64,000 nucleotides of DNA from Candidatus Omnitrophota bacterium (GTDB taxonomy: Bacteria > Omnitrophota > Gorgyraeia > Duberdicusellales > 4484-171), in assembly GCA_021735655.1 (NCBI GenBank), contig JAIPGM010000003.1, forward strand, positions 192,001-256,000, written 5' to 3'. Position numbers and translations under genes: made by a program. The first letter of the stretch is position 1; each line of letters begins with the position of its first letter. Under the pieces are notes generated by a model. That model searched no databases and was not told the origin of the DNA. It was given only the letters and a program-made list of their open reading frames with translations. Positions 1,331 through 59,498 of the stretch are shown piece by piece.

Positions 1331-1353
1331 TTCAGGTTGGTGCTATAAAAGTG

Positions 1354-2454
1354 CTAATTCAATTTTAAATATTTACCAATATACTCGGCAAATTTTTCGC
1401 TTGCTCCGTAAGGAGAGAGGGTTTCTTTTACTTTTTTTAGTTTTTCTTTTAATTGGTTGCATTTCTGATCGTTAGTTAAATAGCTAAAAGTAGCTTTAGC
1501 TATTTTGTTTGAGCTAGCTTCGTTTTGTAATAGTTCATCAACTATCTTTTCTTTTGATAGGATATTAACCATACCGATAAATTTAGTTTTCACTAATTTT
1601 TTTAAAATATGCCAGGTTAATGGATTAACCTTATAAATTATTAAATAAGGTACTTCAAGGATGGCTATCTCTACGGTTGCTGTACCTGAAGAGGCAATGA
1701 TAAATTTTGATTCAGCTAGTGCAAGGTATGAGTGATTAACTATGTCCATATCCGGTGAGAATTGTCGATAGAACTCTTGGCTTAAACTCTCAGGTTTTAT
1801 TATTTGGAATTGATACCCGGGGAGTTGTTTTTCGATAATTTTTTTAGCCTCACTCATAACTGGCAGATGTTTTTTTACTTCGTTTTTGCGTGAGCCAGGC
1901 ATAAATGAAATTATATTTTTTGTTTTTGAGTTTTCAGGTCTCTCAATAATTTCTAAAAGCGGGTGACCAAAGTAAAGAGCATCAATATTTTTAGTTTGAT
2001 AAAAATCTTTTTCAAACTTAAAGATTACTATTATTTGGTCGATAAACTTTTTAATTAAGTTTACCCTTTTTTCTCTCCAAGCCCAAACCTGAGGACTTAC
2101 GTAGTAAAAGACAGGGTATTTTTTATTAATTTTTTTAGCCAATCGAAGATTGAAGTCAGGAAAGTCAATCAATATTACTAAGTCTGGCTTTACTTTTTCT
2201 ATGTGCTCATAAGCTTGGTTAAAGATAGCAAAGATACCTTTCAGAGAAGAGATTACCTCAACCAGTCCGCTTACTGAATGCGCCAGAAGGTTAACTATTT
2301 GTTGAGAGTGTTCAGCAAGCGCCGGCCCACCGAAGGAATCGATTTCAAGGCTTGAGTACTTTTCTTTGAGTTTTTTAGCTAGGAGGCCTCCATAGAGGTC
2401 GCCTGAAGTGTCGCCGGCAATAATGACAATTTTTCTTGTTCCGTCGGGGTTCAT
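1354..2454 (-). CDS. lpxB: lipid-A-disaccharide synthase
   Basis: N-terminal IVIIAGDTSGDLYGG matches the LpxB glycosyltransferase family. At 366 aa the length is typical. It overlaps the upstream oxidoreductase gene by a few nt. Confidence 0.8.
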   Translation of the reverse strand: MNPDGTRKIVIIAGDTSGDLYGGLLAKKLKEKYSSLEIDSFGGPALAEHSQQIVNLLAHSVSGLVEVISSLKGIFAIFNQAYEHIEKVKPDLVILIDFPDFNLRLAKKINKKYPVFYYVSPQVWAWREKRVNLIKKFIDQIIVIFKFEKDFYQTKNIDALYFGHPLLEIIERPENSKTKNIISFMPGSRKNEVKKHLPVMSEAKKIIEKQLPGYQFQIIKPESLSQEFYRQFSPDMDIVNHSYLALAESKFIIASSGTATVEIAILEVPYLIIYKVNPLTWHILKKLVKTKFIGMVNILSKEKIVDELLQNEASSNKIAKATFSYLTNDQKCNQLKEKLKKVKETLSPYGASEKFAEYIGKYLKLN

Positions 2455-2457
2455 TAT

Positions 2458-3393
2458 TTACTTTGCAATGTTCCTTTGGATTTTTAAGGCAAGGCCGAGG
2501 GCATCTTTTGCTTTTTCGGCATATTCAGTTTTATATTTTTTAGCTTTCACTAATTTTATGAATTCAGAAATTTCTTTTTTTAACGGCTCTTCCTTATTAA
2601 TCCCCAGCGATTTCTTTACTATTTTTTCACCTAACTTTTGATAGATTTCAACTTCTTGATTGGCATAGTCTAAAGATACATAAAGGTTTGACATAAAAAT
2701 TCTGATTTTTCTTTCTCGCTTGGCTGATATTCTTGAAGAAGTGATATTAGCCACACAGCCTTTTTTAAACTCAAGACGCACATTGGCGATATCATCGGAG
2801 GCCGAGAGAACCTTTACTCCTTTGGCTTGAACTTTTTTTACTTCATCTCTTACCAAATCAAGAATTATGTCTAAATCATGAATCATTAGATCTAAAACTA
2901 CACTGATGTCCAGTGAGCGGTTGGGGTAAGGGTTTAGGCGATGACATTCGATAAATAAGGGATTTTTAATAAATTCTTTCACGGCTAGATAGGCGCTGTT
3001 GTACCGCTCAACATGGCCAACAAAAAGAAGAGTGCGCATTTTTCTCGATAGATTAACTAGCTCTTCGGCTTCTTTTAAATTTTGAGTTAGCGGTTTTTCA
3101 ACTAAGACTGGAATCCGATGATTTAAGAAGAACTTGGCGATTTCAAAGTGGCTGGTAGTGGGGGTAGCAATACTTACTAAGTCTACCTTGTCTTTTAGTT
3201 CTTTATAGTCTTTAAATGAGGGGCAATTGTTGTTATTTTTAAGCGTAGTTTCATTGGTGTCAACAAGGTAGATATTCGCTATCCCTTTGATTTCCTTATA
3301 TATACGCAGGTGGATACTGCCTAGTTTGCCTATTCCGATGACTCCTACCTTTAACATAGGACCTATCTTATCAAATCGCTTGTGAAAAGTCAA
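2458..3393 (-). CDS. Gfo/Idh/MocA-family NAD(P)-dependent oxidoreductase. The true start is probably the internal Met (MLKVGVIGIGKLGS, near 3360). It is co-operonic with lpxB.
   Basis: Rossmann motif VGVIGIGKLG lies near the N-terminus and the fold is Gfo/Idh/MocA-like. Its stop abuts the lpxB start. Confidence 0.7.
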   Translation of the reverse strand: MTFHKRFDKIGPMLKVGVIGIGKLGSIHLRIYKEIKGIANIYLVDTNETTLKNNNNCPSFKDYKELKDKVDLVSIATPTTSHFEIAKFFLNHRIPVLVEKPLTQNLKEAEELVNLSRKMRTLLFVGHVERYNSAYLAVKEFIKNPLFIECHRLNPYPNRSLDISVVLDLMIHDLDIILDLVRDEVKKVQAKGVKVLSASDDIANVRLEFKKGCVANITSSRISAKRERKIRIFMSNLYVSLDYANQEVEIYQKLGEKIVKKSLGINKEEPLKKEISEFIKLVKAKKYKTEYAEKAKDALGLALKIQRNIAK

Positions 3394-3409
3394 TTGATGT
3401 GATACAATT

Positions 3410-5209
3410 TTGGCTATGAAAAATTACTTAAAACTACTAAAATTCTTAAGACCACAGCTGGGAATTTTTTGTATTGCTTTGCTGGCGACTGCAATTTCTG
3501 CGGCCTTAAACGGAATAACCATTCTTTCAATTTTACCCTTAGTTGATATTGTTTTTACCGGTAAACAGATAATAATTCCTACTACTTTGCCGCCATTTCT
3601 CTCAGGTTTAGTGGATAAGCTAAATGCTGTTGATCCGGCCGTCTTATTTAAGGTCTTGGTTATCTCTATTGTGCCTTATTTCTTTGTTAAAGGAATATTT
3701 TTCTGGCTTCAAGGTTATTTAATGAATGCGGTGGCCTATCGTACGGTAAGAGAGGTAAGGAATAAGCTTTTTCAGAAACTTCAGGAACTTTCTTTGGCTT
3801 TTTACTCACGTCAGAGAACCGGAGAGCTAATGAGTCGGATTACTAATGACGTTGGATGTATTAATAATGCGATTTCTTTTGCTTTCAGAGATTTAATTCA
3901 TGAATCGTTTCGTTTCCTTATTTATGTCGGGTTTGCTTTTGCTATTGGCGGAAAGGTAGCCTTAATAACGGTTATTTTTCTACCGTTAATTGTTATGCCA
4001 ATAGCTAGAATTGGCAGGCGGCTTAAAAAAATATCAACTCAGACTCAGGAAAAAGTGGCTGATATAAGTTCATTGCTTTCTGAGACTATTTCTGGAGTGA
4101 GAATAGTTAAGGCTTTTTCAATGGAAGATTATGAGCTAGGCAGATTTAAAGCGCAGAATCAGCGTTATTTTAGCTACTTGATGAAGGCAACTAAAAGAAT
4201 GCTTTTGTCTACTCCGATTTCTGAGATGGCTGGAGCAATAGCCACAACGGTTATTCTAGCTATTTGGGGAAGGGAGGTAGCTCGGGGTAATATTTCCTTT
4301 GGTGGCTTTAGCGTGGTCATGGGTTCACTTATGTCTTTAATGCAGCCGCTAAAGAAGTTAACCGGAGTTCACTTTACTACTCAGCAGGGTTTAGCTGCTA
4401 ATAAGCGTATTTACGAGATACTTGATACTGAAGTTTTAGTTAAGGATTCAGTTGGTGCCATCGATATACCGATTTTAAAAGATAAGATTGTTTTTAAGGA
4501 TGTTTGGTTTAAATATGAGGGTTCTTCAGAAGATGTTCTAAGTGGCACTAACCTTGAGGTTAAAAGAGGCGAGATGATAGCTGTGGTTGGCCCTTCGGGG
4601 GCCGGAAAAACCACCATGATAAATCTAATTCCTCGTTTTTATGATCCTTATAAGGGGAGTATTTTGTTTGACGGGAAAAATATAAAGGATGCAAGTTTAA
4701 AATCTGTGCGCAATCTTGTCGGTATGGTTACTCAAGAGATGATTCTTTTTAACGATACAATAAGAGCTAATATTGCTTACGGAAATCAGGATACTACTAA
4801 TCAACAGATTGAAGAGGCAGCTAAAAAAGCCTCAGCCCATGAGTTTATCATGAACTTGCCGGAAAAATATGATACAGTTATCGGCGATAGAGGATTTAGG
4901 CTTTCTGGTGGTGAGAAGCAGAGAGTGGCAATTGCCCGGGCTATTCTAAAAGATGCGCCGATATTAATCTTAGACGAAGCCACTAGCAATCTTGATTCAG
5001 CCTCAGAACAGTTGGTAAAAGATGCCCTTTACACCTTAATGCAAGGGAAGACTTCTTTTGTTATTGCTCATCGACTTTCTACAGTCCAAAAGGCCGATAA
5101 AATCGTAGTTTTAGACAAGGGAAATATTGTCGGAATAGGAACGCACGCCCACCTTATCGAGACCAATTCCCTTTATAAAAAGCTGCATGATTTGCAGTTT
5201 AATGCCTAA
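3410..5209 (+). CDS. msbA: ABC transporter with fused permease and ATPase, a lipid A/LPS exporter of the MsbA type
   Basis: Six predicted N-terminal TM helices, Walker A GPSGAGKTT, ABC signature LSGGEKQRVAIARA and Walker B ILILDEAT. It neighbours lpxB. Confidence 0.8.
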   Translation: MAMKNYLKLLKFLRPQLGIFCIALLATAISAALNGITILSILPLVDIVFTGKQIIIPTTLPPFLSGLVDKLNAVDPAVLFKVLVISIVPYFFVKGIFFWLQGYLMNAVAYRTVREVRNKLFQKLQELSLAFYSRQRTGELMSRITNDVGCINNAISFAFRDLIHESFRFLIYVGFAFAIGGKVALITVIFLPLIVMPIARIGRRLKKISTQTQEKVADISSLLSETISGVRIVKAFSMEDYELGRFKAQNQRYFSYLMKATKRMLLSTPISEMAGAIATTVILAIWGREVARGNISFGGFSVVMGSLMSLMQPLKKLTGVHFTTQQGLAANKRIYEILDTEVLVKDSVGAIDIPILKDKIVFKDVWFKYEGSSEDVLSGTNLEVKRGEMIAVVGPSGAGKTTMINLIPRFYDPYKGSILFDGKNIKDASLKSVRNLVGMVTQEMILFNDTIRANIAYGNQDTTNQQIEEAAKKASAHEFIMNLPEKYDTVIGDRGFRLSGGEKQRVAIARAILKDAPILILDEATSNLDSASEQLVKDALYTLMQGKTSFVIAHRLSTVQKADKIVVLDKGNIVGIGTHAHLIETNSLYKKLHDLQFNA

Positions 5210-12859: not shown

Positions 12860-13918
12860 ATGCAGTTAAAACAGATGAGAGGAAAAATTGATAAGATAGA
12901 CAAAAGAATAGTCGAGTTGCTTAACCAGCGGGCTCAGGAAGTAATAAAAATAAGCCTTCTTAAGAAGAAAAAGAAATTATCTCTTTATTCTCCGGAAAGA
13001 GAGGCTAGCATGCTTGAGTCTCTTAAAAAGCTAAGCCAGGGGCCTTTGCGTGGAGAAGATATTGAAAATGTTTTTCGGGAAGTTTTATCAGCCTGTCGTT
13101 CTCAGAAGGCCAATTTGGAGATTGCCTACTTAGGGCCTCAAGGCACTTTTACTCATCTTGCGGCAATAAAGAAATTCGGCAAAAGACCGGACTATCTTCC
13201 GGTAGCAAGTATTAGTGATGTTTTTGATGCCGTCGACAGAGACCAAGCGCAATACGGAGTTGTTCCGGTTGAGAACTCTACCGAAGGGGTAATTAACTAT
13301 ACTTTGGATATGTTTTTTGGCTCATCGTTAAACATTTGCGCTGAGATAACTATGAATATTTCGCACGCCCTCTTAGCTAAAGGGTCTGAGAGTATAAAAC
13401 GGGTTTACTCTAATCCTGAAGTATTTGCTCAGTGTCGAAACTGGATAGCTGCTTCCTTAAAGGATGTTGAGTTAGTTCCAGTTTCATCGACGGCTAAAGC
13501 GGCTAAAGAAGCTAAAAAAGATAAAAATGGTGCTTGTATCGGGAATAAAATTTTGGCCAATCTTTATGGTTTGAGAATAATAGCTTCTTCAATTCAAGAC
13601 TCATCAAACAATTACACAAGATTTTTGGTAATTGCTAAAAATGATAGTCCACCTTCTGGTAAAGATAAGACCTCTATTTTGTTTTCAACTAAAGATAAAG
13701 TAGGGGCTTTGCATGATATTTTGTCATCGTTTAAGGCTTCGGGCTTAAATCTTACTAAAATAGAGTCTCGGCCTTCTAAGAAAAAAGCCTGGGAGTACTA
13801 TTTCTTTGTCGATTTTCAAGGACACAAGAGCTCTGCTTTGGTTAAGAAGTCTTTGAAGAAATTAGAGAAACAATGTTCCTTTGTTAAACTTCTTGGTTCT
13901 TACCCCTGTGAAAATTAG
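12860..13918 (+). CDS. pheA: bifunctional chorismate mutase / prephenate dehydratase (P-protein)
   Basis: An N-terminal chorismate mutase helix (LKQMRGKIDKIDKRIVELLNQR), a prephenate dehydratase core (IAYLGPQGTFTH) and a C-terminal ACT domain. Confidence 0.85.
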   Translation: MQLKQMRGKIDKIDKRIVELLNQRAQEVIKISLLKKKKKLSLYSPEREASMLESLKKLSQGPLRGEDIENVFREVLSACRSQKANLEIAYLGPQGTFTHLAAIKKFGKRPDYLPVASISDVFDAVDRDQAQYGVVPVENSTEGVINYTLDMFFGSSLNICAEITMNISHALLAKGSESIKRVYSNPEVFAQCRNWIAASLKDVELVPVSSTAKAAKEAKKDKNGACIGNKILANLYGLRIIASSIQDSSNNYTRFLVIAKNDSPPSGKDKTSILFSTKDKVGALHDILSSFKASGLNLTKIESRPSKKKAWEYYFFVDFQGHKSSALVKKSLKKLEKQCSFVKLLGSYPCEN

Positions 13919-14501
13919 CCTGTTAGTTGAGGCGTTAAAAAATATTAAGGAGATAAAAATCAAAAAAAGCTTTACTTTAATTGAATTAATTGTAGTCATC
14001 GCAATCATTGCCATTTTAGCGGCGATCATTGCACCGAATGCTTTTCGAGCAATTGAGAAAGCTAAAATATCTGCCACAGTTCAGGATTTTAAATCTTTTA
14101 AAACTGCGACTCAGGCTTATTATGCTGATGTTGGAAAGTGGCCTTGGGAGGGCGCAGTTTGGAATCCACCCAATTGGGACACCAGCAATGGCGAAGGGTA
14201 TATCAACAATGATGGTGCCTCAGGTTGGGATGGACCTTATTTGGAAGGTTGGCCAAAAGCCAATTGGGGTATGGATTTTGTTTGTTATTATTATTTGAGT
14301 GATTGGGATGCAGATGGGATAGCTGAAAGTCATTTTGTTTCAATTCGCAAGAATGCCTTCGTTACTCCTACAGGCAATTCTACAGCCTTGCCAGAACATG
14401 TTCGACAAAGGATAGATGAGATTCTTGATGACGGAGATTTGGATACCGGAAAACTTCAGATGGCTAGCGATTTGTATTTTGACTATCTACTAGTTAGATG
14501 A
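13881..14501 (+). CDS. prepilin-type N-terminal cleavage/methylation domain protein, a type IV pilin or pseudopilin and paralog of 48996..49652. The start is uncertain: the ATG at 13881 gives a 29-aa leader overlapping pheA, and an ATC at 13959 behind an AAGGAG is an alternative.
   Basis: Class III signal KKS|FTLIELIVVIAIIAILAAIIAP with Glu at +5. The C-terminus is rich in W/G/N and contains the GWDGPYLEGW motif. Confidence 0.75.
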   Translation: MLNFLVLTPVKISLLVEALKNIKEIKIKKSFTLIELIVVIAIIAILAAIIAPNAFRAIEKAKISATVQDFKSFKTATQAYYADVGKWPWEGAVWNPPNWDTSNGEGYINNDGASGWDGPYLEGWPKANWGMDFVCYYYLSDWDADGIAESHFVSIRKNAFVTPTGNSTALPEHVRQRIDEILDDGDLDTGKLQMASDLYFDYLLVR

Positions 14502-14529
14502 AGGCCATTAAAAGCCTAACTAAAACTTT

Positions 14530-15621
14530 ATGGGGACATATCGTAAAGAATTAAAAAAGATCGATAACTATAAGCCGGGAAAACCAATCGAAGAAGTAAA
14601 AAGAGCTTTGGGATTGGGTGAGGTCTATAAACTGGCTTCTAACGAGATTCCTTTTGAACCGACCTATATAAAAAAAGCTGTTTTGGCTGAGATTAAGAAC
14701 ATTAATCGTTATCCAGAAAGTGGTTCATTTTACCTGAGGCAAAAATTAGCTAAAAAACTAAAAGTTAACGAAGAACAGCTAGTTTTTGGTAACGGATCTG
14801 ACGAGTTGATTGTTCTGGCACTTAAGGCCTTTGTTGAAAAGGGTGACCAGGTTATAGTGTCTTATCCGACCTTTTTGATTTATGAAATTCAAGCAAAAAT
14901 AGCCGGTGCTAAAGTTATTAGAGTTCCTTCCAGCGGCTTGCGTTACGATTTAGAGGAAATAGCAAAGAAGGTAAATAAGAAGACAAAGATTATTTTTATT
15001 GCTAATCCTGATAATCCTACCGGAACCTATTTGACTCAGCGAGAAATTAATAATTTTTTAGCTAAAATTCCTAAGTCGATATTAGTTTTTTTTGATGAGG
15101 CTTACTTTGAATTTGCACCAAAGAATTTTCCTAAAAGTTTGGCTTTTTTAAAGAAAAGAGGCAATATCATTGTAACTAGAACATTTTCTAAGGCCTATGG
15201 CTTGGCTGGCTTGCGTATTGGTTATGGAGTTACTACTAAAGAGATAGCCGGTATTTTAAATAAAATTAGGGAGCCGTTTAATATTAATCGCTTTGCTCAA
15301 GTAGCGGCCGTTGCCGCTTTAGGAAACAACAGTTTTTTAAAAAAGGCAGTAAGCTATGTAAATAATGAAAAGAGCTATTTTTATCGAGAATTAAAAAAAT
15401 GCAAACTTTCATTCGTTGAGAGCGCGACTAATTTTGTAGTGGTTGATTTTAAGAAGAGCACTAAGGGGCTTTATGATTATTTGTTGAAAAATGGCGTTAT
15501 TGTTCGTGAACTTAAGGGTTGGGGCTTGTCGCGTTACTTTCGAGTGACTGTGGGCCTAGCTAAGGAAAATAGAAAATTTATAAGTTGTTTAAAGGCTTAT
15601 TTAGCCAAAATTAAAGGATAA
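14530..15621 (+). CDS. hisC: histidinol-phosphate/aromatic aminotransferase (class II PLP aminotransferase)
   Basis: KLASNEIPFEP near the N-terminus and the PLP-lysine region SKAYGLAGLRIGY. It lies in the aromatic amino acid cluster. Confidence 0.8.
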   Translation: MGTYRKELKKIDNYKPGKPIEEVKRALGLGEVYKLASNEIPFEPTYIKKAVLAEIKNINRYPESGSFYLRQKLAKKLKVNEEQLVFGNGSDELIVLALKAFVEKGDQVIVSYPTFLIYEIQAKIAGAKVIRVPSSGLRYDLEEIAKKVNKKTKIIFIANPDNPTGTYLTQREINNFLAKIPKSILVFFDEAYFEFAPKNFPKSLAFLKKRGNIIVTRTFSKAYGLAGLRIGYGVTTKEIAGILNKIREPFNINRFAQVAAVAALGNNSFLKKAVSYVNNEKSYFYRELKKCKLSFVESATNFVVVDFKKSTKGLYDYLLKNGVIVRELKGWGLSRYFRVTVGLAKENRKFISCLKAYLAKIKG

Positions 15622-15624
15622 ACT

Positions 15625-16641
15625 ATGATTATTGTATTTAAAAAAGGCGCAACTGAACAGGAAGTTTCAAATTTAATCAGCCGAATTGAAAAATTAGGAT
15701 TGAAGGCAATGATTTCCAAAGGTACTGAACGAACTATTGTCGGAGTCATCGGTCCGGAAGACATAATTCGTTTGCATCCTTTAGAGGTTTTTCCCGGTGT
15801 TGAAAAAGTAATGCCGGTCTTGGCGCCCTATAAGCTTGTATCTCGAGAGTTTAAAAAAGATGACACAGTAGTAAAAATTGCAAGAGGCGTTGAAGTTGGC
15901 GGTAAGAAAATAACAGTTATCGCTGGTCCTTGTTCCATAGAGAGTGAAGCTCAGCTTATGGAGGTTGCTAAGAAAGTCAAAAAATCCGGAGCTTCAATTT
16001 TAAGGGGAGGCGCTTTTAAGCCTAGAAGCTCTCCTTATACTTTTCAAGGTTTAGGCCAGGAAGGTTTAAAGATTCTAAAAGATGCATCGGATAAATTTTC
16101 AATAGCTACAGCTACTGAAGTTATGGACACCCGCGATGTCGAGCTAGTTGCAAGGTACAGTGATTGTTTGCAAATCGGGGCTCGCAATATGCAGAATTTT
16201 AATCTTTTAAAGGAAGTCGGCCAAACCAAGAAGCCGGTTATTTTAAAGCGCGGCCTGAATGCTACGATAAAAGAGCTTTTGATGAGTGCTGAATATATAT
16301 TAAGCGAAGGAAATTTTAATGTAATCCTTTGTGAGCGGGGGATACGCACCTTTGAAGATTTTACCCGTAATACTTTAGATATCAGCGCAGTCCCAGTAAT
16401 AAAGTTGCTATCACACCTACCAATTGTAGTTGATCCGTCTCATGCTGCCGGAAAGTGGGGGTTGGTTGGTCCGTTAAGTAAAGCTGCTATTGCAGCTGGT
16501 TGTGATGGTTTATTAATTGAGGTCCATCCTAATCCTCAAGAGGCTTTAAGCGATGGGCCACAGCAGTTATTGCCCGAGAACTTTGCAAGTTTGATGAATG
16601 AATTAAAGGATATAGCTAAAATAGTAAAAAGACAAATGTAG
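15625..16641 (+). CDS. aroF: 3-deoxy-7-phosphoheptulonate (DAHP) synthase, class I-beta, with an N-terminal ferredoxin-like regulatory domain
   Basis: Catalytic motifs KPRSSPYTFQGLG and GARNMQN of the DAHPS/KDO8PS family, plus an extra ~70-aa N-terminal domain as in Thermotoga-type DAHPS. Confidence 0.75.
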   Translation: MIIVFKKGATEQEVSNLISRIEKLGLKAMISKGTERTIVGVIGPEDIIRLHPLEVFPGVEKVMPVLAPYKLVSREFKKDDTVVKIARGVEVGGKKITVIAGPCSIESEAQLMEVAKKVKKSGASILRGGAFKPRSSPYTFQGLGQEGLKILKDASDKFSIATATEVMDTRDVELVARYSDCLQIGARNMQNFNLLKEVGQTKKPVILKRGLNATIKELLMSAEYILSEGNFNVILCERGIRTFEDFTRNTLDISAVPVIKLLSHLPIVVDPSHAAGKWGLVGPLSKAAIAAGCDGLLIEVHPNPQEALSDGPQQLLPENFASLMNELKDIAKIVKRQM

Positions 16642-16642
16642 G

Positions 16643-17491
16643 GTGAAGATGGATTTGAAAAGAGTTAAAAAAATAGCAATAATCGGTGTTGGATTTATGG
16701 GCGGATCTTTAGCTTTAGCTTTGAAGAAGAAGCTGCCTTATGCGAAGATTTGGGGGTTTGCCCGCAGTCAGAAGTCTTTTAATAAGCTTAAAAGGTTAAG
16801 TTTGCTGGATCGGGTTGAGAAAGATCTAGCTAAACTGGTGGTTGATTCAGATCTAGTAGTTTTTGCTTTACCGGTTAAGGTTATTTGTAGTTACTTTAAA
16901 AAAGTTTCTCCTTTTTTAAAAGAAGGGGCTACGGTTATCGATTTAGGAAGCACAAAACAGTTAGTCGAAAAATCGGCCAAAATGAATTTACCGCGTTCGA
17001 TCGATTTCATTGCTTGCCATCCTTTAGCCGGAAGTGAAAAGAGTGGCGCTGAATTTAGCCACGAAAATCTTTATCAAGGTTCAGTTTGCTTGATTACTTC
17101 TTCGCCCAAAGCCAAGGCAGCTAAATCAGTAAAGAATTTTTGGCAAAAGCTAGGCTGTCGGGTTGTTTTTATTAGCGCTAGTCAGCACGATAAAGTTCTT
17201 TCTGGTATATCTCACCTGCCGCATTTAATTTCTTTTTCGCTCAGTGAGCTTATTTCTGAAGATTATTTGAAGTTTTCTACTAACAGTTTTAAAGATTTAA
17301 CTCGCATAGCTAACTCGCCAGCTTTAGTTTGGGCAGATATTTTTATTTCTAATAGTGACAACATTGTAAGGGATTTGAAAGGCTATATTAAAATTTTAAA
17401 AAAATATCAAGCTTTGTTAAAAAAAGGCGATCGGGAGCTAATTGTTAAGTTAATCACCAAGGTAAATCACAAACAAAAAAAGATTATATGA
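16643..17491 (+). CDS. tyrA: prephenate/arogenate dehydrogenase
   Basis: Rossmann motif IAIIGVGFMGGSLALAL and the TyrA-family core. Confidence 0.75.
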   Translation: MKMDLKRVKKIAIIGVGFMGGSLALALKKKLPYAKIWGFARSQKSFNKLKRLSLLDRVEKDLAKLVVDSDLVVFALPVKVICSYFKKVSPFLKEGATVIDLGSTKQLVEKSAKMNLPRSIDFIACHPLAGSEKSGAEFSHENLYQGSVCLITSSPKAKAAKSVKNFWQKLGCRVVFISASQHDKVLSGISHLPHLISFSLSELISEDYLKFSTNSFKDLTRIANSPALVWADIFISNSDNIVRDLKGYIKILKKYQALLKKGDRELIVKLITKVNHKQKKII

Positions 17492-18132
17492 TTATTGCTA
17501 TTGATGGGCCAGCCGGATCAGGCAAAACTACTGTGGCTCGACTTTTGGCTAAAAGATTAGGTATTTCTTATCTTGATACCGGAGCCATTTATCGTGTTTT
17601 AACCTATCTTGCCTTAGAGCGTAAAATTGGCGCTTGGGACGAAGAGGCTTTAACCGAGCTGGCTAAAATTCTCAATTTGGATTTAAAGGGGAGCGAAGTT
17701 TATCTCGACGGTGTTGACCTTAGCGAGAAGATTAGGACCCCGCAAATAGATAAGTCTATCTCAGCGGTAGTTTCTCATCCCGAGGTACGAAAGGTAATCG
17801 TAGAGCTACAGAGAAAAATCGTTGAAAAAGGAGATTTTGTCGTAGAGGGTCGCGATATTACTACAGTTGTTTTTCCGGATACCGAATACAAGTTTTATCT
17901 TGATGCTGACCCGAACATTCGCGCTGAAAGGCGATCGAAAGAACTGCAAACTAAAGGAGTAAGCATTGAGCTTTCTGAGGTTCAGGAGGATTTAGAGAAA
18001 CGAGATTATGCTGATAAGAATAGAGAAGTTGGAGCTTTAAAAAAAGCTCCTGATGCCTTTTTTATTGATACCAGCAATTTAACTATCGAGCAATCCGTTG
18101 AGGAGATAGCAAAGCATATTCAAGTGAAGTAA
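17488..18132 (+). CDS. cmk: cytidylate kinase
   Basis: IIAIDGPAGSGKTTVAR P-loop, 214 aa. Confidence 0.88.
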   Translation: MIIAIDGPAGSGKTTVARLLAKRLGISYLDTGAIYRVLTYLALERKIGAWDEEALTELAKILNLDLKGSEVYLDGVDLSEKIRTPQIDKSISAVVSHPEVRKVIVELQRKIVEKGDFVVEGRDITTVVFPDTEYKFYLDADPNIRAERRSKELQTKGVSIELSEVQEDLEKRDYADKNREVGALKKAPDAFFIDTSNLTIEQSVEEIAKHIQVK

Positions 18133-48995: not shown

Positions 48996-49652
48996 TTGGC
49001 GATGAGGAAGAGTTTTACTTTAATCGAGTTGATTGTAGTCATTGCGATTATCGCAATTCTAGCAGCAATCATCGCCCCTAATGCTTTTAGAGCAATCCAA
49101 AAAGCCAAGGCGTCTAGAATAATAGCTGACTTCACTGCTATTAAGAGTGCAAGCATGAGCTTTTATGCTGATACCGGTAGTTGGCCGGTAAATATTGAAC
49201 CTAGGCCAGATCCCGGAGGTACTAATTCTTGGACTTGGATAAAAAGTGGCCAGCATCCTCTTATGGATAATCTTAATAATTGGATTGGTTGGGACGGACC
49301 TTATCTAGAAAGCTCTTTAGCTTCGCCTTCTCCGCCTACTGGTGTTCCGGGCTGCACAAGCCCCGGATACTATTATACCCAATGGTGGGGCAGCGGTTGG
49401 CATGCGGGAGGTTATGGCAAATTTGATTTGGATAAAAATCCAAGTACCGGCGGAGCTTGTTATATAGCTGCTACTGGCTGTGAAGTTAATAGCGCTTGGA
49501 GTATAAATATTTTTCCTATACCTGCGGACGTGATGAAAAGTATCAACCTGGCTTTAGATGGTGACGATTCTTTTGATGATATGCTCGGGCGAGTGCAGGT
49601 TTATAGCGGTTGCGATGGTTTAGTAAGTTTTTACGTTTCTCATCCGATATAG
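48996..49652 (+). CDS. prepilin-type N-terminal cleavage/methylation domain protein, a putative major pilin or pseudopilin and paralog of 13881..14501. The likely start is the ATG at 49002 (MRKS|FTLIEL).
   Basis: Class III signal MRKS|FTLIELIVVIAIIAILAAIIAPNAFRAIQKAKA with Glu+5, and a C-terminal GWDGPYLES motif shared with the 13881 protein. Confidence 0.8.
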   Translation: MAMRKSFTLIELIVVIAIIAILAAIIAPNAFRAIQKAKASRIIADFTAIKSASMSFYADTGSWPVNIEPRPDPGGTNSWTWIKSGQHPLMDNLNNWIGWDGPYLESSLASPSPPTGVPGCTSPGYYYTQWWGSGWHAGGYGKFDLDKNPSTGGACYIAATGCEVNSAWSINIFPIPADVMKSINLALDGDDSFDDMLGRVQVYSGCDGLVSFYVSHPI

Positions 49653-53264: not shown

Positions 53265-54708
53265 AAAATTAATATTTCAAAAAAATAGCGAGTTAAAATC
53301 AAGTGGTTATGTTGGGAAACCGAGTGTTTCCTTAATTGATCCTAGGGATGTTTTTCCTGATCAGTTTTTGCGTAGCGAGTTGCCCCTGCCTCAATTAGGT
53401 GAGCTTGAAGTAATTCGGCACTATAGTCAGTTAGCCGAGCTTAACTTTTCAGTCGATACCCATTTTTATCCTCTTGGTTCTTGTACTATGAAATATAATC
53501 CGAAGCTTAATGAGTCTTTGGCCAACCTAGAGGCTTTTAAAGGAATCCATCCTTATCAGGATCCAGAATCGGTGCAAGGGGCTCTTGAGCTTATCTATAA
53601 TTTGAATATGCTTTTATCTGAAATAACCGGAATGAAACAATTCACCTTTCAGCCCTCAAGCGGTGCTCAAGGTGAGCTTACTGGCTTGTTGATGATTCGT
53701 AAGTTTCATCAAGTTTCTGGAAATAGGAAGACTAAAGTTATTATTCCTGATTCAGCCCATGGCACAAACCCAGCCTCAGCTAGTATGTGCGGCTATGAGA
53801 CAGTGATAATTGAAAGTACTGAGGGAGGATTAATCGATATTGAAAAACTAAGAGCAGCGGTAGATCAGGATACAGCAGCGATAATGCTCACTAATCCTAA
53901 TACTTTGGGTTTGTTTGAAGAACAGATTCTGGAAGTGGCAGCAATAGTTCATCAGGCTGGAGGTTTGCTTTATTATGACGGAGCAAATTTTAACCCGCTT
54001 TTAGGCATTACTAACCCGGCGAAAATGGGTTTTGATGTTATTCATCTTAATTTGCATAAAACCTTTTCTACTCCCCATGGCTGCGGTGGTCCCGGAGCTG
54101 GTGTGGTTGGAGTTGCTAGCAAGTTAGTTGATTTTCTTCCTACACCAGTCGTAGCTAAAAAAGATGACGTTTATTATTTTGACTACTCGCTGGAAAATTC
54201 AATTGGCCGTTTACGTACCTTCTATGGTAATTTTGGCGTTTTAGTTAGAGCCTATAGTTATATTTTACGTTTAGGAAGGGAGGGCTTGTTGCGAGTCGCT
54301 CAAAATTCAGTAATTAATGCAAACTATATAAAGGAGAAGTTAAAGAATCATTATCATTTGGCTTACAATAAACCTTGTATGCATGAGGTAGTTTTTTCAG
54401 CTAAGCTTCAGAAAGAAAAAGGTGCCTCAGCTTTAGATATCGCTAAAAGACTTATTGACTACGGTATCCATCCGCCGACGATATATTTCCCTTTGATTGT
54501 TAAGGAGGCCTTGATGATTGAGCCTACTGAAACTGAGAGTAAAAAGACTCTCGATAAATTTATCCGGGTGATGATTAGCATCGATCGAGAGATAGCTGAG
54601 GAATTATACAAGGTTAAGAATGCTCCTTGTGAGGCACCGATTAAAAGGGCTGATGAGGTTCAGGCAGCACGCTTTCCGGAGGTAAGATGGAAAAAAGATG
54701 GCGCTTAA
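53257..54708 (+). CDS. gcvPB: glycine dehydrogenase (decarboxylating) subunit 2
   Basis: PLP-lysine region HLNLHKTFSTPHGCGGPGAG. Confidence 0.9.
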   Translation: MDRKLIFQKNSELKSSGYVGKPSVSLIDPRDVFPDQFLRSELPLPQLGELEVIRHYSQLAELNFSVDTHFYPLGSCTMKYNPKLNESLANLEAFKGIHPYQDPESVQGALELIYNLNMLLSEITGMKQFTFQPSSGAQGELTGLLMIRKFHQVSGNRKTKVIIPDSAHGTNPASASMCGYETVIIESTEGGLIDIEKLRAAVDQDTAAIMLTNPNTLGLFEEQILEVAAIVHQAGGLLYYDGANFNPLLGITNPAKMGFDVIHLNLHKTFSTPHGCGGPGAGVVGVASKLVDFLPTPVVAKKDDVYYFDYSLENSIGRLRTFYGNFGVLVRAYSYILRLGREGLLRVAQNSVINANYIKEKLKNHYHLAYNKPCMHEVVFSAKLQKEKGASALDIAKRLIDYGIHPPTIYFPLIVKEALMIEPTETESKKTLDKFIRVMISIDREIAEELYKVKNAPCEAPIKRADEVQAARFPEVRWKKDGA

Positions 54709-55454
54709 TCGTCGATAAGAAAAAAGACGGTTATTATAATATGGCTGTTGATGAGGCAATACTGCTTAACTATCAAACTCAGCGGGTTCCGACTTTGCGG
54801 ATTTATGGCTGGAGTGAGCCATTTATTACTTTAGGTTACAGCCAAGAACCTAACGAGGTGTTAGAATTAACCAATAAGTTACCTTTTTTAAAGAGAGTTA
54901 CTGGAGGTTCAGCTATTCTGCATGATCGTGAGCTTACTTATAGTATTACCTGCGTGTTGGAGGATTTAAGTTTGACTAGCTCGGTCAAAGAGTCCTATAA
55001 AACTATTTGTAGTTTTTTGATAAATTTCTACCAAAGTTTAGGAATTTCCGTTAAGTATGCTAAAGATACTGAAGAGACAAGCCTAGATGAGCAGACTCCT
55101 TTTTGTTTTTCCAGTTGGCAGAAATTAGATTTGGTTGCGGCTGATAAGAAAATCGGTGGTAATGCCCAAAGGCGTAAGCGAAACTTAATTTTTCAGCATG
55201 GTAGTATTCCTCAAGAATTGGATTTTTCGATAATTGATAAGGCGATTAAAACTCCTTTTGATGTTAGAAAGAGGGCAACTTCTTTGGAACAGTTGCTTGG
55301 CCATCATACCGACTTTTCTTCTTTGAGCCAATTATTAGCTAAAAGCTTCGAAAATACATTTGGGCTTGAACTTTACCGGGATGTGATTTCACCATCAGAA
55401 GAGCTGACAGTTAGTGATATCCTAAAAAAGAAACAGCAGATTCATCTTTTTTGA
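54687..55454 (+). CDS. octanoyl/lipoyl transferase of the BPL/LplA/LipB family (LipM/LplA-N-like). It probably lipoylates GcvH.
   Basis: KRVTGGSAILHDRELTYS and GGNAQRRKRN match LplA-family catalytic motifs. It lies immediately after gcvPB. Confidence 0.7.
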   Translation: MEKRWRLIVDKKKDGYYNMAVDEAILLNYQTQRVPTLRIYGWSEPFITLGYSQEPNEVLELTNKLPFLKRVTGGSAILHDRELTYSITCVLEDLSLTSSVKESYKTICSFLINFYQSLGISVKYAKDTEETSLDEQTPFCFSSWQKLDLVAADKKIGGNAQRRKRNLIFQHGSIPQELDFSIIDKAIKTPFDVRKRATSLEQLLGHHTDFSSLSQLLAKSFENTFGLELYRDVISPSEELTVSDILKKKQQIHLF

Positions 55455-55506
55455 TTTTATGGCTAATGAAAGCGTTTTCATTGTTTTCATAAAAACTCTT
55501 TATCCA

Positions 55507-55535
55507 TTGAATAATAGATATAAATATGGTATAAA
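55507..55535 (+). promoter_or_regulatory. candidate sigma-70 promoter for the pseudopilin/Cys-rich operon: TTGAAT, 17 nt, TATAAA
   Basis: TTGAAT at 55507-55512 and TATAAA at 55530-55535. A GGGGA RBS and the ATG at 55557 follow. Confidence 0.45.
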
Positions 55536-55556
55536 ATAATTAGATGGGGAACGATA

Positions 55557-55973
55557 ATGGGGAGGCGTTGTAAGAACAAAAATAAATCATTTTCGCTCGT
55601 TGAAATTATCACGGTGATAATCATATTGGGGATTTTAGCGGCAATTGCTTCTCCCTCATATCACAGGATGATTGAGAGAAGCAGGGGCAAACACGCTGAG
55701 TTTAATCTCATGGCTGTTTATAATGCTCAGAAACGACATCGCTTGGCTCAGAAGACCTACTATCAGTGTGTTAGTGCTCCTTGTGGTTCTCAAGAATTAG
55801 AAGATCACTTGGGAGTGTATATAAATGACCCTTATTTTAATTATGGAATAGTAGCTAACACGACTACTTTTACGGCAACAGCTACTAGGATAAATAGTAA
55901 TTTGTGTCTTGGCGCGACTATGAATGTGAGTGACAGTGGAAGTGAACCTATAAAAGGATGTGATCTTTGGTGA
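55557..55973 (+). CDS. minor pilin / pseudopilin (GspH/FimT-like), Ser at -1
   Basis: MGRRCKNKNKS|FSLVEIITVIIILGILAAIASP is a class III signal with Glu+5. Length is 138 aa. Its stop overlaps the next start (GTGA). Confidence 0.75.
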   Translation: MGRRCKNKNKSFSLVEIITVIIILGILAAIASPSYHRMIERSRGKHAEFNLMAVYNAQKRHRLAQKTYYQCVSAPCGSQELEDHLGVYINDPYFNYGIVANTTTFTATATRINSNLCLGATMNVSDSGSEPIKGCDLW

Positions 55974-57538
55974 AAAATAGATTGAATAAAAAGGCTCGAG
56001 GTAACCGGCGTATTTTTGGGGCTTTCGGAGTCTTGATTTTGGCGGCTCTTTTTCTTAGCTCAAGCTATTTCTTTGAATATTCATTTGCTCAAACACACCC
56101 TTTTCTAAAATATTTCCCAGCCAATGAAGAAATAATTACTTATTCTACCGATGGATTTAGCGGTTATCCTTTAGCTTTAACTGAAATAACAAACTGTACT
56201 CCGCCCAGTTTTGGCGGAGTAGATTTATTTAAGGCTCTAGCTGATTGTAATGCTTGTATGGGTTGGAAGGAGGGCTGCGCTGATTGTTGTATTAATCCAA
56301 CAACTCCGCCAGAGTACTTTTGTGCTCCCAGTGCAACGGATCCTGGGCCTAGTGGTGGATATAATCCAGTGCCTTTTAGTGAAAATTGCGACGGCTCAAC
56401 TCGAGTTTCCTGTACTACCTGTGGTCCTACCTTTTGTGGTCTTGATCCTGTGTTTGATAATTGTACTGGCTTTAATCCCTTGAATGTTGTTAGTGGCGAT
56501 ATTCCTAATTGTCAGCAGGCAGGATGTCCGATTTCAGATGATTATAGCTCTGTTGGTTGCGTTAGTGTTGGTTCCCCTCCTGAAACATATTGCATTGGAG
56601 ATAAAACTCCTCTTGATAAAGGTTGTGTTCCTGTAACTGAAGCCCAAGCAGTAGCAAGCTTGGGGTATAATCCGTTATTCCATACTTCAAGCACTGGGAG
56701 TGATTTTTATACAGTTACTACTCATCCAGCTGGGACTTTTAACGATACTGATGACGTTACAGTTGCCTTTGATAATGAAGGCATAACTTTTGATCCAGAC
56801 AATGATCCCTGCTTTCAGTATGGTCCAGGAGCCTTTTTAAATTATATTAATTCTTGTTCTGTTTATGCTGATGCTGCAGAGGTTGGATTTAAGGATAATC
56901 ACTGTTGTCAGTCTGGAGTATGTAGTGGTGCGGGCATGGGCGAGTGCGATACTAGCGGTGGCAATACAGCTACTATAGCCGATGACGGTGGTTGTACGAG
57001 CATAATGAATAATTGGGATAATCTTATACCTGTTTCTGCAGGGGTTAGTAAAAATTGCCATGCAGTTCAAGCTTTTGAATGTGTTGCTTTGCAAGAATTA
57101 GTAAATAACTGCATACAGAGTAATAACCAGTCTGAATGTAGTGCTTGTTTTGTTGAAATTGATTCAGATTTTCGCTATGAATTTGTGCCAAAAAGCGGAG
57201 AGTCTTTAGTTCTTGTTTGGCTTATTGAGGCGGTACCTGATATGCCAGCGGGCATGAACCCTAATTTTAATACCTATTTTTATAGCATGGTTAGGGTATT
57301 TGAACAGGGTGGAAGCGAACTCGGTCTTCCTACGAATATTGTACATCAGAAAAATTTTACTTCCGCCTTTAGTGTTTTTGGCGCAACATCAATAGATTCA
57401 TCATGGCTTACACCGGGTAAAAAATACGAAATAAGGGTATCTTATTTTATACCTAACGACTCTAATATTCCTCTTGGCGAACACTTAACGATGACCGTAA
57501 ACCGCATGGAACTGGATGTTTTCAGAGTGCGGGAGTAG
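55967..57538 (+). CDS. cysteine-rich secreted or membrane-anchored protein with no recognisable homology; a putative pilus-associated adhesin. The start is a TTG at 55967 or a GTG at 55970.
   Basis: N-terminal signal-anchor KKARGNRRIFGAFGVLILAALFL. About 30 Cys occur in residues 75-390, for example ADCNACMGWKEGCADCC and HCCQSGVCSGAGMGEC. The C-terminal ~130 aa are Cys-free and beta-rich. Lysine is almost absent, unlike the rest of the window. Confidence 0.6.
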   Translation: MVKNRLNKKARGNRRIFGAFGVLILAALFLSSSYFFEYSFAQTHPFLKYFPANEEIITYSTDGFSGYPLALTEITNCTPPSFGGVDLFKALADCNACMGWKEGCADCCINPTTPPEYFCAPSATDPGPSGGYNPVPFSENCDGSTRVSCTTCGPTFCGLDPVFDNCTGFNPLNVVSGDIPNCQQAGCPISDDYSSVGCVSVGSPPETYCIGDKTPLDKGCVPVTEAQAVASLGYNPLFHTSSTGSDFYTVTTHPAGTFNDTDDVTVAFDNEGITFDPDNDPCFQYGPGAFLNYINSCSVYADAAEVGFKDNHCCQSGVCSGAGMGECDTSGGNTATIADDGGCTSIMNNWDNLIPVSAGVSKNCHAVQAFECVALQELVNNCIQSNNQSECSACFVEIDSDFRYEFVPKSGESLVLVWLIEAVPDMPAGMNPNFNTYFYSMVRVFEQGGSELGLPTNIVHQKNFTSAFSVFGATSIDSSWLTPGKKYEIRVSYFIPNDSNIPLGEHLTMTVNRMELDVFRVRE

Positions 57539-57621
57539 GGATTATATAGACGCCATTGAGGGAAGAGATTAGTATAGATTAAGTATTAGGAAAAAGAAAG
57601 ATGAGTACAAGGAGGTACAAA

Positions 57622-58461
57622 ATGAAAAAGATAGCAATTTTGGCTATAGTTTCTATGTTGGTTCTGCCTCTGTTGGGTTTTGCTCAAGAAGGCCAGAATA
57701 TTGCAGTAGCACCTTTGGTGATTTCTGATGAAGGAAGCGGGACATTTACCTTAATTGAAACCCGTTGGCCTGACTTTTACAAGTACGTTCCAGCTGGGGG
57801 TTGTAGTGGATTGAGTAATTACAGTAAGAAGCGAAAGATTGAAGGAACTCCAACTTCACTTTATCCAATTTGTGGCAGTATGTTCTGCTATGTTACTGAC
57901 GCTATCGATCCATCAACCGGCACTCTTCACAGCTATCCGAATGCCGGGGCTCCAGCAGGTTATAACGTAGTTTATGAATATGCACCTAGTAATGCTGAGT
58001 ATGTTCCAATTTCTGACTTAGGAGCAACAGTTAACTTCGATGGCGACTGGGCTGAGTATCGTGATGTGGCTAGAATTTTGGTTACCTGGACAATTAGGCT
58101 TGAAGGTTATAAGAATATTATCCAGCCTAACCGAAAACATGATCCTTGGTTTAGTGGTGGTTGTGGTGGAACTACCTATCAATCTTTTCCCGAAGGTGAT
58201 GTTTATACGAAGTTGTTCGTTAATGGCTCACCTATAGGTAATCCGGCCATAATGACTATACCTTATGGCGGAAAGGGTTCAGCCTCAGGCGTAGTTGATC
58301 CAACCCATACCGGAAGCGTTGCGCTTACACCGGACATGTTCGGAGGATCTTTCCCAGCAACTTTGAATCTTGCAATTAAGGCTTACAATGACACTTGCAT
58401 GTCAGTTCAAAGTCCTAATGGCATGAGGAATTTAGTTGTTACAGTAACACCGATTAACTAG
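57622..58461 (+). CDS. secreted protein of unknown function (Sec signal peptide). The start is the ATG at 57622 behind an AAGGAGG; the track ORF starts at 57601.
   Basis: Signal MKKIAILAIVSMLVLPLLGFA|QEG and six Cys (CSG, ICGSMFC, GGCGG, DTC). No family recognised. Confidence 0.6.
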   Translation: MKKIAILAIVSMLVLPLLGFAQEGQNIAVAPLVISDEGSGTFTLIETRWPDFYKYVPAGGCSGLSNYSKKRKIEGTPTSLYPICGSMFCYVTDAIDPSTGTLHSYPNAGAPAGYNVVYEYAPSNAEYVPISDLGATVNFDGDWAEYRDVARILVTWTIRLEGYKNIIQPNRKHDPWFSGGCGGTTYQSFPEGDVYTKLFVNGSPIGNPAIMTIPYGGKGSASGVVDPTHTGSVALTPDMFGGSFPATLNLAIKAYNDTCMSVQSPNGMRNLVVTVTPIN

Positions 58462-58475
58462 AATTAAAGAAGACA

Positions 58476-58518
58476 AGACATAGAGGGCTAATTCCGGCCC
58501 TCTATGTCTATTTATTAT
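58476..58518 (+). terminator. rho-independent terminator after the secreted-protein gene
   Basis: A 13-bp perfect stem, AGACATAGAGGGC / GCCCTCTATGTCT, with an 8-nt loop and followed by ATTTATTAT. Confidence 0.55.
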
Positions 58519-58596
58519 AGGTAAAGTTTATCTTTCTTATTGGCCTTTCTGGCGTTATAATATTTATAGTTCGTTAAAATAAAAGTTGTTTTATAA

Positions 58597-59493
58597 ATGA
58601 AACATAAGGGATTAACCCTCATTGAGATAGTAGTTTCGGTAGTTTTAATCGGTATAGCTTTAATTGCTTTGGGAACAGCTTTAGTTACCGGAAAACACTT
58701 CATAAAAAGAGCTGAAAATGACGGCCGCGCTTTAAGCATAGCCTTGTCGCACAAAGAAGAACTTCTTAGTCGTTCTTATGACCATGCTGATTTATGTCCG
58801 GGTCTTTTTGGTTCCTCTTGTACGCAGAGTAATCCGGTTGGGTCGCCGGTAGATGGTTTTTTTAATTGGACCACGGTAGTAACTAATCGACGGGCTTGCA
58901 ACACCGGTAGCACTCGTTGTATTCCCTATAAAGAAATTATTGCTCAAGTTAATTATCCTGAAGAGGCAATCTCTGGCGCTAACAGTGGCATAACTAAAAG
59001 AGTTACCGTAAAGGATATAATTCCTTTTCCTAAGGTGCATCTTAGTGAGGCTAATACTGGGGTAGTTACCTGTGATGCTGCTGCTGGATGTGAAGTCCTT
59101 TTTGGCATTGGTAATGAAACAGTAGTTGGATCCGGTGGCGATTCCTTATCAATAGATCTTCCGGCTTACCCAGTAGAAAAAGATCTTTTAGTTATTTACA
59201 ATATTGCAATTAATATCGAATTAAACGGAGCAGGCATTCAAAATGCCGATAATATAGTAACTAGGTCCAGGATTATAAATAACGATAGCGGTGCTGTAAC
59301 CTGGAGTTCAATGGTGACAGTTACCCCGATTATGTCTCAGGCAGTAATTAATAGTGTTTCAAGAATTTCTATTCCTGCTGCCGGTGTTAATGATCCCCAT
59401 ACGATTGAGGTACGTTGGTATAAGCAACAAAATAGAGGTCAAATATCTGTTAAGCGATCTAGTTTGACAGTGCTTGCTTTTGAAAGGGATTAA
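58597..59493 (+). CDS. large pseudopilin-like protein (prepilin-type N-terminus, 298 aa; GspK/PilW/PilX-like size)
   Basis: MKHKG|LTLIEIVVSVVLIGIALIALGTAL with Gly-1 and Glu+5, and six Cys in the globular part. Confidence 0.7.
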   Translation: MKHKGLTLIEIVVSVVLIGIALIALGTALVTGKHFIKRAENDGRALSIALSHKEELLSRSYDHADLCPGLFGSSCTQSNPVGSPVDGFFNWTTVVTNRRACNTGSTRCIPYKEIIAQVNYPEEAISGANSGITKRVTVKDIIPFPKVHLSEANTGVVTCDAAAGCEVLFGIGNETVVGSGGDSLSIDLPAYPVEKDLLVIYNIAINIELNGAGIQNADNIVTRSRIINNDSGAVTWSSMVTVTPIMSQAVINSVSRISIPAAGVNDPHTIEVRWYKQQNRGQISVKRSSLTVLAFERD

Positions 59494-59498
59494 AAGCT

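Follow-up and report, generated by a model that had tools for sequence, protein, structure and literature searches.

An orphan GspG-like pilin gene with ATC at its ancestral ATG position, between pheA and hisC in an Omnitrophota genome

The subject of this report is a pilin gene in a 64,000-nt stretch of Candidatus Omnitrophota DNA (assembly GCA_021735655.1, contig JAIPGM010000003.1, positions 192,001 to 256,000 of the forward strand; hereafter the window), which had been noticed from the letters alone as lying within an aromatic amino acid operon and as having either a long leader or a rare ATC start. We find here no novel class of system, but an orphan gene for a GspG-like pilin in which ATG has changed to ATC, in an apparently recombination-prone insertion site. 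It provides a natural setting in which near-cognate initiation can be tested against extension of the leader in class III signal peptides. The pilin and its neighbors are as follows.

12860..13918, + strand: pheA, bifunctional chorismate mutase/prephenate dehydratase with an ACT domain (Pfam CM_2, PDT, ACT), stop TAG at 13916-13918
13919..13958, + strand: pheA-pilin spacer, 30% GC, exceeding the sister-species spacer by 28 nt in the alignment and open in the pilin frame
13971..14501, + strand: mature pilin of 176 aa (FTLIEL...) plus stop TGA, with a Trp-rich, GspG-like head domain
14530..15621, + strand: hisC-type (aromatic/histidinol-phosphate) aminotransferase (Pfam Aminotran_1_2), 28 nt after the pilin stop
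15625..18132, + strand: aroF-type 3-deoxy-D-arabino-heptulosonate 7-phosphate (DAHP) synthase, tyrA prephenate dehydrogenase and cmk, tightly packed (from open reading frames and Pfam matches of the collinear sister-species orthologues)

A pilin gene within an aromatic amino acid operon

As had been proposed, the open reading frame (ORF) at 13881-14501 is truly a pilin gene; its product belongs to the type IV pilin family and probably has a GspG-like fold, and profile scores, alignments to solved pilins, and a predicted structure all back the identification as a pilin. The frame is open on the + strand from 13866, immediately after an in-frame stop that ends at 13865, to the TGA at 14499-14501 (the ORF itself being uninterrupted over 13881..14501), and it contains the class III (prepilin) signal motif KKS/FTLIEL, in which the slash marks cleavage and the codon for Phe +1 is at 13971. 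The protein scores above the cutoffs of PF07963 (N_methyl; 29.0 bits versus 21.2) and TIGR02532 (22.5 versus 16.3) and is borderline for Pfam T2SSG (PF08334; 21.8 versus 21). Its mature N terminus has a small residue at −1 (Ser), F+1, and E+5, followed by about 20 hydrophobic residues (KKS/FTLIELIVVIAIIAILAAII), and the solved pilins (Geobacter PilA, gonococcal PilE, and GspG) align from their mature residue 1 onto the Phe at 13971, which fixes the cleavage site there. An AlphaFold (AF2) model built from 52 family sequences (predicted local distance difference test, pLDDT, of 92) consists of a helix of about 50 residues (residues 7-58) and a β-sheet head, which is the pilin architecture. All 23 family-invariant positions are kept.

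The pilin is a member of a large Omnitrophota-specific, Trp-rich family: there are more than 1,100 homologues, and every one with a source name is labelled Omnitrophota. Trp makes up 4.5% of the window pilin, versus a family mean of 3.9% (proteins P0001-P0121) and a background of 0.7% in window proteins, and F+W+Y together amount to 14%. That a Trp-rich pilin sits in an aromatic amino acid operon may be a coincidence. Its GC and GC3 are similar to those of neighboring genes, so that a foreign origin, which we considered, is rejected on composition. In GenBank the gene is recorded as MCF7907970.1, a 197-aa “type II secretion system protein GspG” starting at GTG 13908 (P0001 in our family set); look-ups of the exact protein, for this record and for the 206-aa ORF, returned no contig on record.

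Comparison with known systems places the protein near, although not within, the GspG/EpsG/PulG pseudopilins of type II secretion systems (T2SS; TIGR01710, PF08334). It shares with them the class III signal motif and the long N-terminal helix with a small β-sheet head, and GspG is both its best NCBIfam match and its best fold, the ten best Protein Data Bank (PDB) matches of the model all being EpsG, GspG, or PulG, weak as they are (E 0.08-0.8, template modeling (TM) scores of 0.41-0.48 by target length). However, the TIGR01710 score is below the equivalog cutoff (54.7 versus 88.85 bits), the fold match to GspG is weak (E 0.08, TM 0.42-0.48), the Trp-rich head domain exceeds that of GspG by about 40-50 aa, Ser occupies position −1, and the gene lies not in a gsp operon but as an orphan between pheA and hisC. 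The C-terminal part of the pilin has a conserved acidic motif, D-D-G-[ND]-L-x-T-G, which may resemble the calcium-binding part of GspG. With short-leader type IVa pilins (e.g., PilE, PilA, and Geobacter PilA-N), the window pilin shares F+1, E+5, and an alignable stretch over residues 1-60, and its own family typically has leaders of 4-5 aa; it differs from them in a head domain unrelated in sequence and in the lack of an ATG at the start of the leader. A short basic leader opened by a canonical codon is not what the window pilin has: the family start position is occupied by ATC. As for type IVb pilins, a class with long leaders (15-30 aa) and usually a +1 residue other than Phe, the leader of the window pilin would be of 21-30 aa if GTG or TTG were used. 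Its mature N terminus, however, is Phe, short leaders are found in its relatives and in the sister orthologue, and no match to a Tad/Flp or type IVb family was obtained.

The gene lies between pheA and hisC-aroF-tyrA-cmk on one strand, a placement that was correctly read from the sequence and that Pfam matches and ORFs support. It had also been stated that all gaps are 30 nt or less, which holds downstream (28 nt from the pilin to hisC, then 3 nt, 1 nt, and a 4-nt overlap) but fails between pheA and the pilin, where the gap is 40 nt if ATC 13959 is the start. Because no terminator-like site was detected on the + strand between 8000 and 20600, promoter-like matches on that strand and in that interval are at the background level expected from shuffling, and the two spacers are of only 40 nt and 28 nt, it is reasonable to regard the pilin as probably co-transcribed with pheA and hisC. 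The pheA-pilin spacer gave no Rfam match and no significant fold (z-score 0.26). A regulatory RNA in it was considered and rejected: the minimum free energy structure pairs the Shine-Dalgarno (SD) sequence with CUUCUU at 13889-13897, and this pairing is not above chance. Also rejected was a PheA-pilin fusion by +1 frameshift, which has no slippery or stimulatory feature and would entail an implausible “leader” of 352 aa.

The ancestral start and its change to ATC

The position of the ancestral start emerges from three comparisons. The first is with a sister-species population represented in ENA/Logan by four mutually identical loci (L001-L004), whose PheA is 84% identical to that of the window and whose ten-gene synteny is the same (CofD-HPr-PtsI-NTP transferase-pheA-pilin-hisC-aroF-tyrA-cmk-lepA). 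The pilin of L001 begins TAA-AAGGAGG-CAATC-ATG AGA AAA GGG TTT, i.e., with an SD, 5 nt, and ATG, and the AAGGAG-ATAAAA-ATC AAA AAA AGC TTT of the window aligns exactly on this start, ATC on ATG. A longer leader is impossible in L001 because the pheA stop is in the pilin frame, four codons upstream of the ATG. The second comparison is with a paralogue within the window.

49002..49652, + strand: paralogous pilin with a canonical ATG and the leader MRKS/FTLIEL, between RmuC and a Cu-oxidase_4 (YfiH/PgeF-type) gene

Over its first 28 mature residues, this paralogue is identical to the pilin under study, and since the DNA differs at many synonymous sites, this identity reflects selection rather than recent conversion. 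The third comparison is with the family, in which leaders are of 3-7 aa in 95 of 121 members (79%), the mode being M-x-K-[S/G/A], and in which position −1 holds S in 44 members, G in 44, and A in 27, making Ser as common as Gly. Most of the “long” family leaders hold a Met at −4 or −5 and are thus over-called. Over-extended leaders of the kind that MCF7907970.1 probably has are seen in about 20% of the family, which affects leader-based classification into type IVa and type IVb pilins. In two members, P0010 (L008 5001-5591) and P0041, a 22-aa leader contains a degenerate second motif (M..FTPLEKN..) before G/FTLIEL, which may be the remnant of a duplicated signal; for the long leader of P0010, no pattern of SD plus near-cognate codon was found. 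Relatives P0003, P0004, P0010, and P0011 (52-63% identity, in unrelated gene contexts) were considered as guides to the window start and set aside as uninformative paralogues.

As the SD-ATG of L001, the ATG of the paralogue at 49002, and the family leader lengths agree, these alignments locate the ancestral start of the pilin at 13959. Thus, of the two starts offered by the original prediction, the ATC alternative is the better supported, because it matches both the L001 start and the family leader; the orthologous locus, where a conserved start had been suggested as a check, has ATG and a short leader at this position and no long leader.

A second copy of the allele speaks to whether the ATC is real. 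L011, a 940-bp Logan contig from another sequencing run (SRR28370467), carries the same ATC, SD, and spacer, and encodes a 197-aa product that differs from that of the window at three residues. The two pilin sequences are separated by three nonsynonymous changes and one synonymous change, plus a single change in the spacer that would be synonymous in the pilin frame (GCG to GCA), and GTG 13908 is conserved in both. Since this independent assembly differs at other positions and nevertheless has the same ATC, comparison of the two copies indicates that ATC 13959 is real and not an assembly error. The last bases of the contig (L011 917-940, its 3′ end) are the Nextera adapter CTGTCTCTTATACACATCTGACGC and not genomic DNA, and the divergence seen there was accordingly rejected as biology. 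Searches of Joint Genome Institute (JGI) metagenomes for variants from the same species, with an exact pattern having N at the third base of codons and with the variable C-terminal 123 aa, found none.

Candidate start codons and present-day initiation

Several codons could in principle open the frame today, and those that matter most, together with the elements around them, are the following.

13881..13883, + strand: TTG, the first canonical start codon of the open frame; TCG in L011; SD duplex of −2.9 kcal/mol
13908..13910, + strand: GTG, the GenBank start, giving a 197-aa product with the 21-aa leader MKISLLVEALKNIKEIKIKKS; overlaps pheA by 11 nt
13947..13952, + strand: Shine-Dalgarno AAGGAG, 6 nt before ATC 13959; homologous to AAGGAGG in L001
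13959..13961, + strand: ATC at the ancestral ATG position, aligned with the ATG of L001 and with that of the paralogue at 49002
13959..13970, + strand: short class III leader (M/I)KKS, cleaved before Phe, from the comparison of family leaders

Between the upstream stop that ends at 13865 and the FTLIEL motif there is no in-frame ATG; the codon at 13881, reported earlier as an in-frame ATG, is TTG. The canonical in-frame starts ahead of the motif are TTG 13881, TTG 13893, and GTG 13908, which would give leaders of 21-30 aa, and the near-cognates are ATT 13944, ATA 13953, and ATC 13959, the last lying in frame 51 nt downstream of GTG 13908 and preceded, as had been read, by AAGGAG and 6 nt. The nearby ATG at 13873 lies outside the pilin frame and meets a stop after 4 codons. 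Phase variation by way of the A7 run that follows the ATC was considered and rejected, as no upstream start in another frame could be shifted into the pilin frame: ATG 13873 and TTG 13927 both stop within 4 codons.

We infer, with roughly even odds, that AUC 13959 is the codon mainly used now. Its AAGGAG, at an ideal spacing, forms a duplex of −8.2 kcal/mol with the 16S tail, although 7% of window positions score as well. On a start-context matrix trained on 43 unambiguous ATG starts of the window, ATC 13959 scores +7.2 bits, above 90% of true starts and at a level reached by 0.27% of internal codons. The pilin gene entered the pheA-hisC junction in a narrow lineage and would be transcribed within that string of genes. 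Its native SD-associated start, at 13959, is ATG in the sister species and across the family and has mutated to ATC in this allele. The protein would still be made, mainly by near-cognate initiation with fMet-tRNA on AUC, helped by the intact AAGGAG at 6-nt spacing, the A-rich unstructured context, and ribosomes arriving from the pheA stop 41 nt upstream. The yield would be below that of an ATG start, and the product would be a family-typical prepilin, (M)KKS/FTLIEL, from which the prepilin peptidase would then remove the leader. Initiation at GTG 13908, should any occur, would lead to the same mature pilin after cleavage. The GTG start that GenBank gives for MCF7907970.1 is probably a gene-caller artefact, as such programs accept only ATG, GTG, and TTG.

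There is precedent for such codons in E. coli, where infC and pcnB start with AUU. The window pilin has in common with these genes an AUH codon at a proper spacing from a good SD. It differs from infC, whose unusual start codon is conserved and has a regulatory role, in that the ATC arose recently in a single allele, has ATG as its counterpart in the sister species, and shows no sign of regulation.

Several points weigh against AUC being the main start. In E. coli reporters, Met initiation from AUC reaches 1-2% of that from AUG, as against 10-100% from GUG (bioRxiv 10.1101/063800), and the frame contains a GTG 11 nt inside pheA, in a window where overlaps of 4-25 nt are common for coupled genes. 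Only about a quarter of window genes have a strong SD, so that a GTG without one is not disqualified, while the context matrix mostly measures A/T richness and gives high scores to some internal codons as well, which makes it only partly specific. The ATC is found in one allele (two copies) and is ATG in the sister species, a non-ATG start with no long-term conservation, and the three nonsynonymous changes and one synonymous change between the copies are too few to show purifying selection after the loss of ATG.

A possible but less probable alternative is that the gene starts at GTG 13908 by termination-reinitiation coupling with pheA across the 11-nt overlap. The basic, amphipathic 21-aa leader would then be removed, and the SD-ATC would be a relic of an ATG whose loss was rescued by the open frame. 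GTG is a canonical start kept in both copies of the allele; the pilin frame is open from 13866, which makes an upstream GTG usable; and the change between the two spacers is synonymous in that frame. For class III signal peptides, the length of the leader is not critical for the mature product. Starts that overlap the preceding gene by 4-25 nt are frequent in the window, and many of its starts are preceded by just A/T-rich sequence. GUG is also, as noted, a far better initiator than AUC in E. coli (bioRxiv 10.1101/063800). However, GTG 13908 has no SD (−2.7 kcal/mol) and a context of −6.6 bits, below 98% of true starts, and the SD in front of the ATC is still intact. The conservation of GTG 13908 is explained by pheA, within whose codons TGT GAA it lies, and a GTG in the same register (CGT GAG) is present in L096, a relative without the pilin. 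Leaders of 21 aa are out of keeping with the family and could not exist in the sister species, and we estimate from base frequencies that a frame would stay open over 17 codons by chance in about 30% of cases. That an R-to-C change at the PheA C terminus might have created GTG 13908 was also considered and rejected, since the CGT GAG of relatives already holds the same GTG.

That the gene lost its start codon very recently and is now a pseudogene or effectively silent, with an ORF left intact for lack of time, is in our estimation improbable. In keeping with that idea, the ancestral ATG is lost, the ratio of three nonsynonymous changes to one synonymous change puts omega at an estimated value near 1, at least five pilin paralogues in the window would make the loss of one tolerable, and absence of the insertion from most relatives fits dispensability. 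Yet the ORF is intact, all family-invariant residues are kept in a protein with a confident AF2 model, the SD and the A-rich initiation region are undamaged, and the ATC allele is found in two backgrounds whose pheA genes are 21% apart, having thus persisted and spread after the mutation.

Initiation at 13881, or at TTG 13893, to give a long type IVb-like leader is very improbable. TTG 13881 is the first canonical start of the open frame, and TTG 13893 is kept in both copies; but the former is TTG rather than ATG and is TCG in L011, which largely refutes it, neither has an SD (−2.9 and −0.5 kcal/mol, respectively), and both have poor contexts by the matrix. The type IVb-like leader from 13881 put forward in the original prediction is also at odds with the mature protein, which has F+1 and E+5 and relatives of the GspG/type IVa kind. 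Finally, a sequencing or assembly error for ATG, conceivable for a single-base difference in a metagenome-assembled genome, has a negligible chance of being the explanation given the identical codon in the independent assembly from SRR28370467, which differs at other positions.

Returning to AUC 13959 as the favored start, every in-frame start upstream of the motif would give the same mature pilin, since the prepilin peptidase removes the leader. Selection on the start would thereby be relaxed, and N-terminal proteomics of the mature pilin would be uninformative as to which codon is used. More generally, because class III signal peptides are cleaved, the loss of a start codon is buffered: a pilin can lose it and still give an identical mature protein from an upstream in-frame start, for which this locus is a natural test case.

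Patchy insertion and possible spread of the pilin cassette

Surveyed gene neighborhoods show the pilin to be a patchy, lineage-specific insertion and not a conserved member of the operon. None of 80 GTDB species representatives with a PheA 47-78% identical to that of the window has a pilin after pheA (0/80), and hisC follows within about 250 nt in 73 of them. In the closest PheA relatives found in a large protein collection (L095, 87%; L096, 83%; L098, 81%), pheA is followed directly by hisC, with no pilin. Altogether, a pilin at this junction is seen only in the window, L011, and L001, and is absent from about 85 other related lineages examined. The junction is variable even where it has no pilin: in L014, L016, L019, and L021, the pheA-hisC spacer is of 100-250 nt and contains a hairpin plus T-run or repeat-rich sequence.

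The comparison with L011 revealed a sharp boundary.

13890..14522, + strand: tract near-identical between the window and L011, with 6 differences in 633 nt; the pheA of L011 upstream of it differs at 60 of 283 nt

The tract, about 99% identical, takes in the final 29 nt of pheA, then the spacer and the whole pilin, and ends 21 nt past the pilin stop; its divergence differs from that of pheA with a Fisher's exact p of 4e-27 (computed with 5/633, whereas the listing shows 6). The differences in the L011 pheA (21%) are mostly synonymous, and other sampled lineages are no closer to it (72-79% identity); when the 103-aa PheA fragment of L011 was used to look for homologues, only distant partial proteins came back and its lineage was not recovered. 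The PheA C terminus encoded within the tract, SYPCEN (13904-13918), is unique among the 120 closest PheA clusters, of which about 90 have K or R at the position of the Cys, and it is also present in L011. The sharp breakpoint suggests a recent transfer of the cassette between species-level lineages by homologous recombination. An assembly chimera in the single 940-bp L011 contig is a residual alternative, although even a chimera would need both genomes to share the unusual end of pheA.

Exchange of pilin alleles between strains by homologous recombination has been described in Pseudomonas and Neisseria. The parallel lies in presence or absence at a fixed site and in a near-identical allele in a divergent background; the differences are that the site here is within an amino acid biosynthesis operon and that the evidence is one 940-bp contig. 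The patchy occurrence of the cassette at one fixed site within a conserved operon, together with the near-identical copy beside a 21%-diverged pheA, hints that orphan Omnitrophota pilins spread by homologous recombination, which would be relevant to the diversification of surface filaments in these putatively host-attached nanobacteria. A bolder version, to which we attach little weight, is that the cassette is recombination-mobile, targets the pheA-hisC junction, and moves between Omnitrophota species with the last 10 or so codons of pheA, and that the loss of ATG ties pilin synthesis to pheA translation, through coupling to GTG 13908 or through re-initiation at the SD-AUC. If so, the output of an aromatic pilin (14% F+W+Y, 4.5% Trp) would be tied to expression of the aromatic amino acid pathway.

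The recurrence of pilin genes in housekeeping operons, which had been remarked upon earlier, is also seen at 49002, between the RmuC and Cu-oxidase_4 genes, and in a block that starts at 55557.

55557, 58597, and 59499: three pilin-like genes with N_methyl motifs
55967, 57601, and 60047: three ORFs without Pfam matches, in the same block

This block (55557-60460) lies between lipoate-protein ligase and lipoyl synthase, straight after gcvT-gcvH-gcvPA-gcvPB (region 54687-61341). The pilin-like genes of this block (55557-60071) resemble minor pilins, a PilM-like gene follows at 61769, and none of about 45 window proteins scanned matched Peptidase_A24 (prepilin peptidase). Long + strand ORFs cover about 89% of the 64 kb, and only two or three long ORFs, near 1350-3420, are on the − strand.

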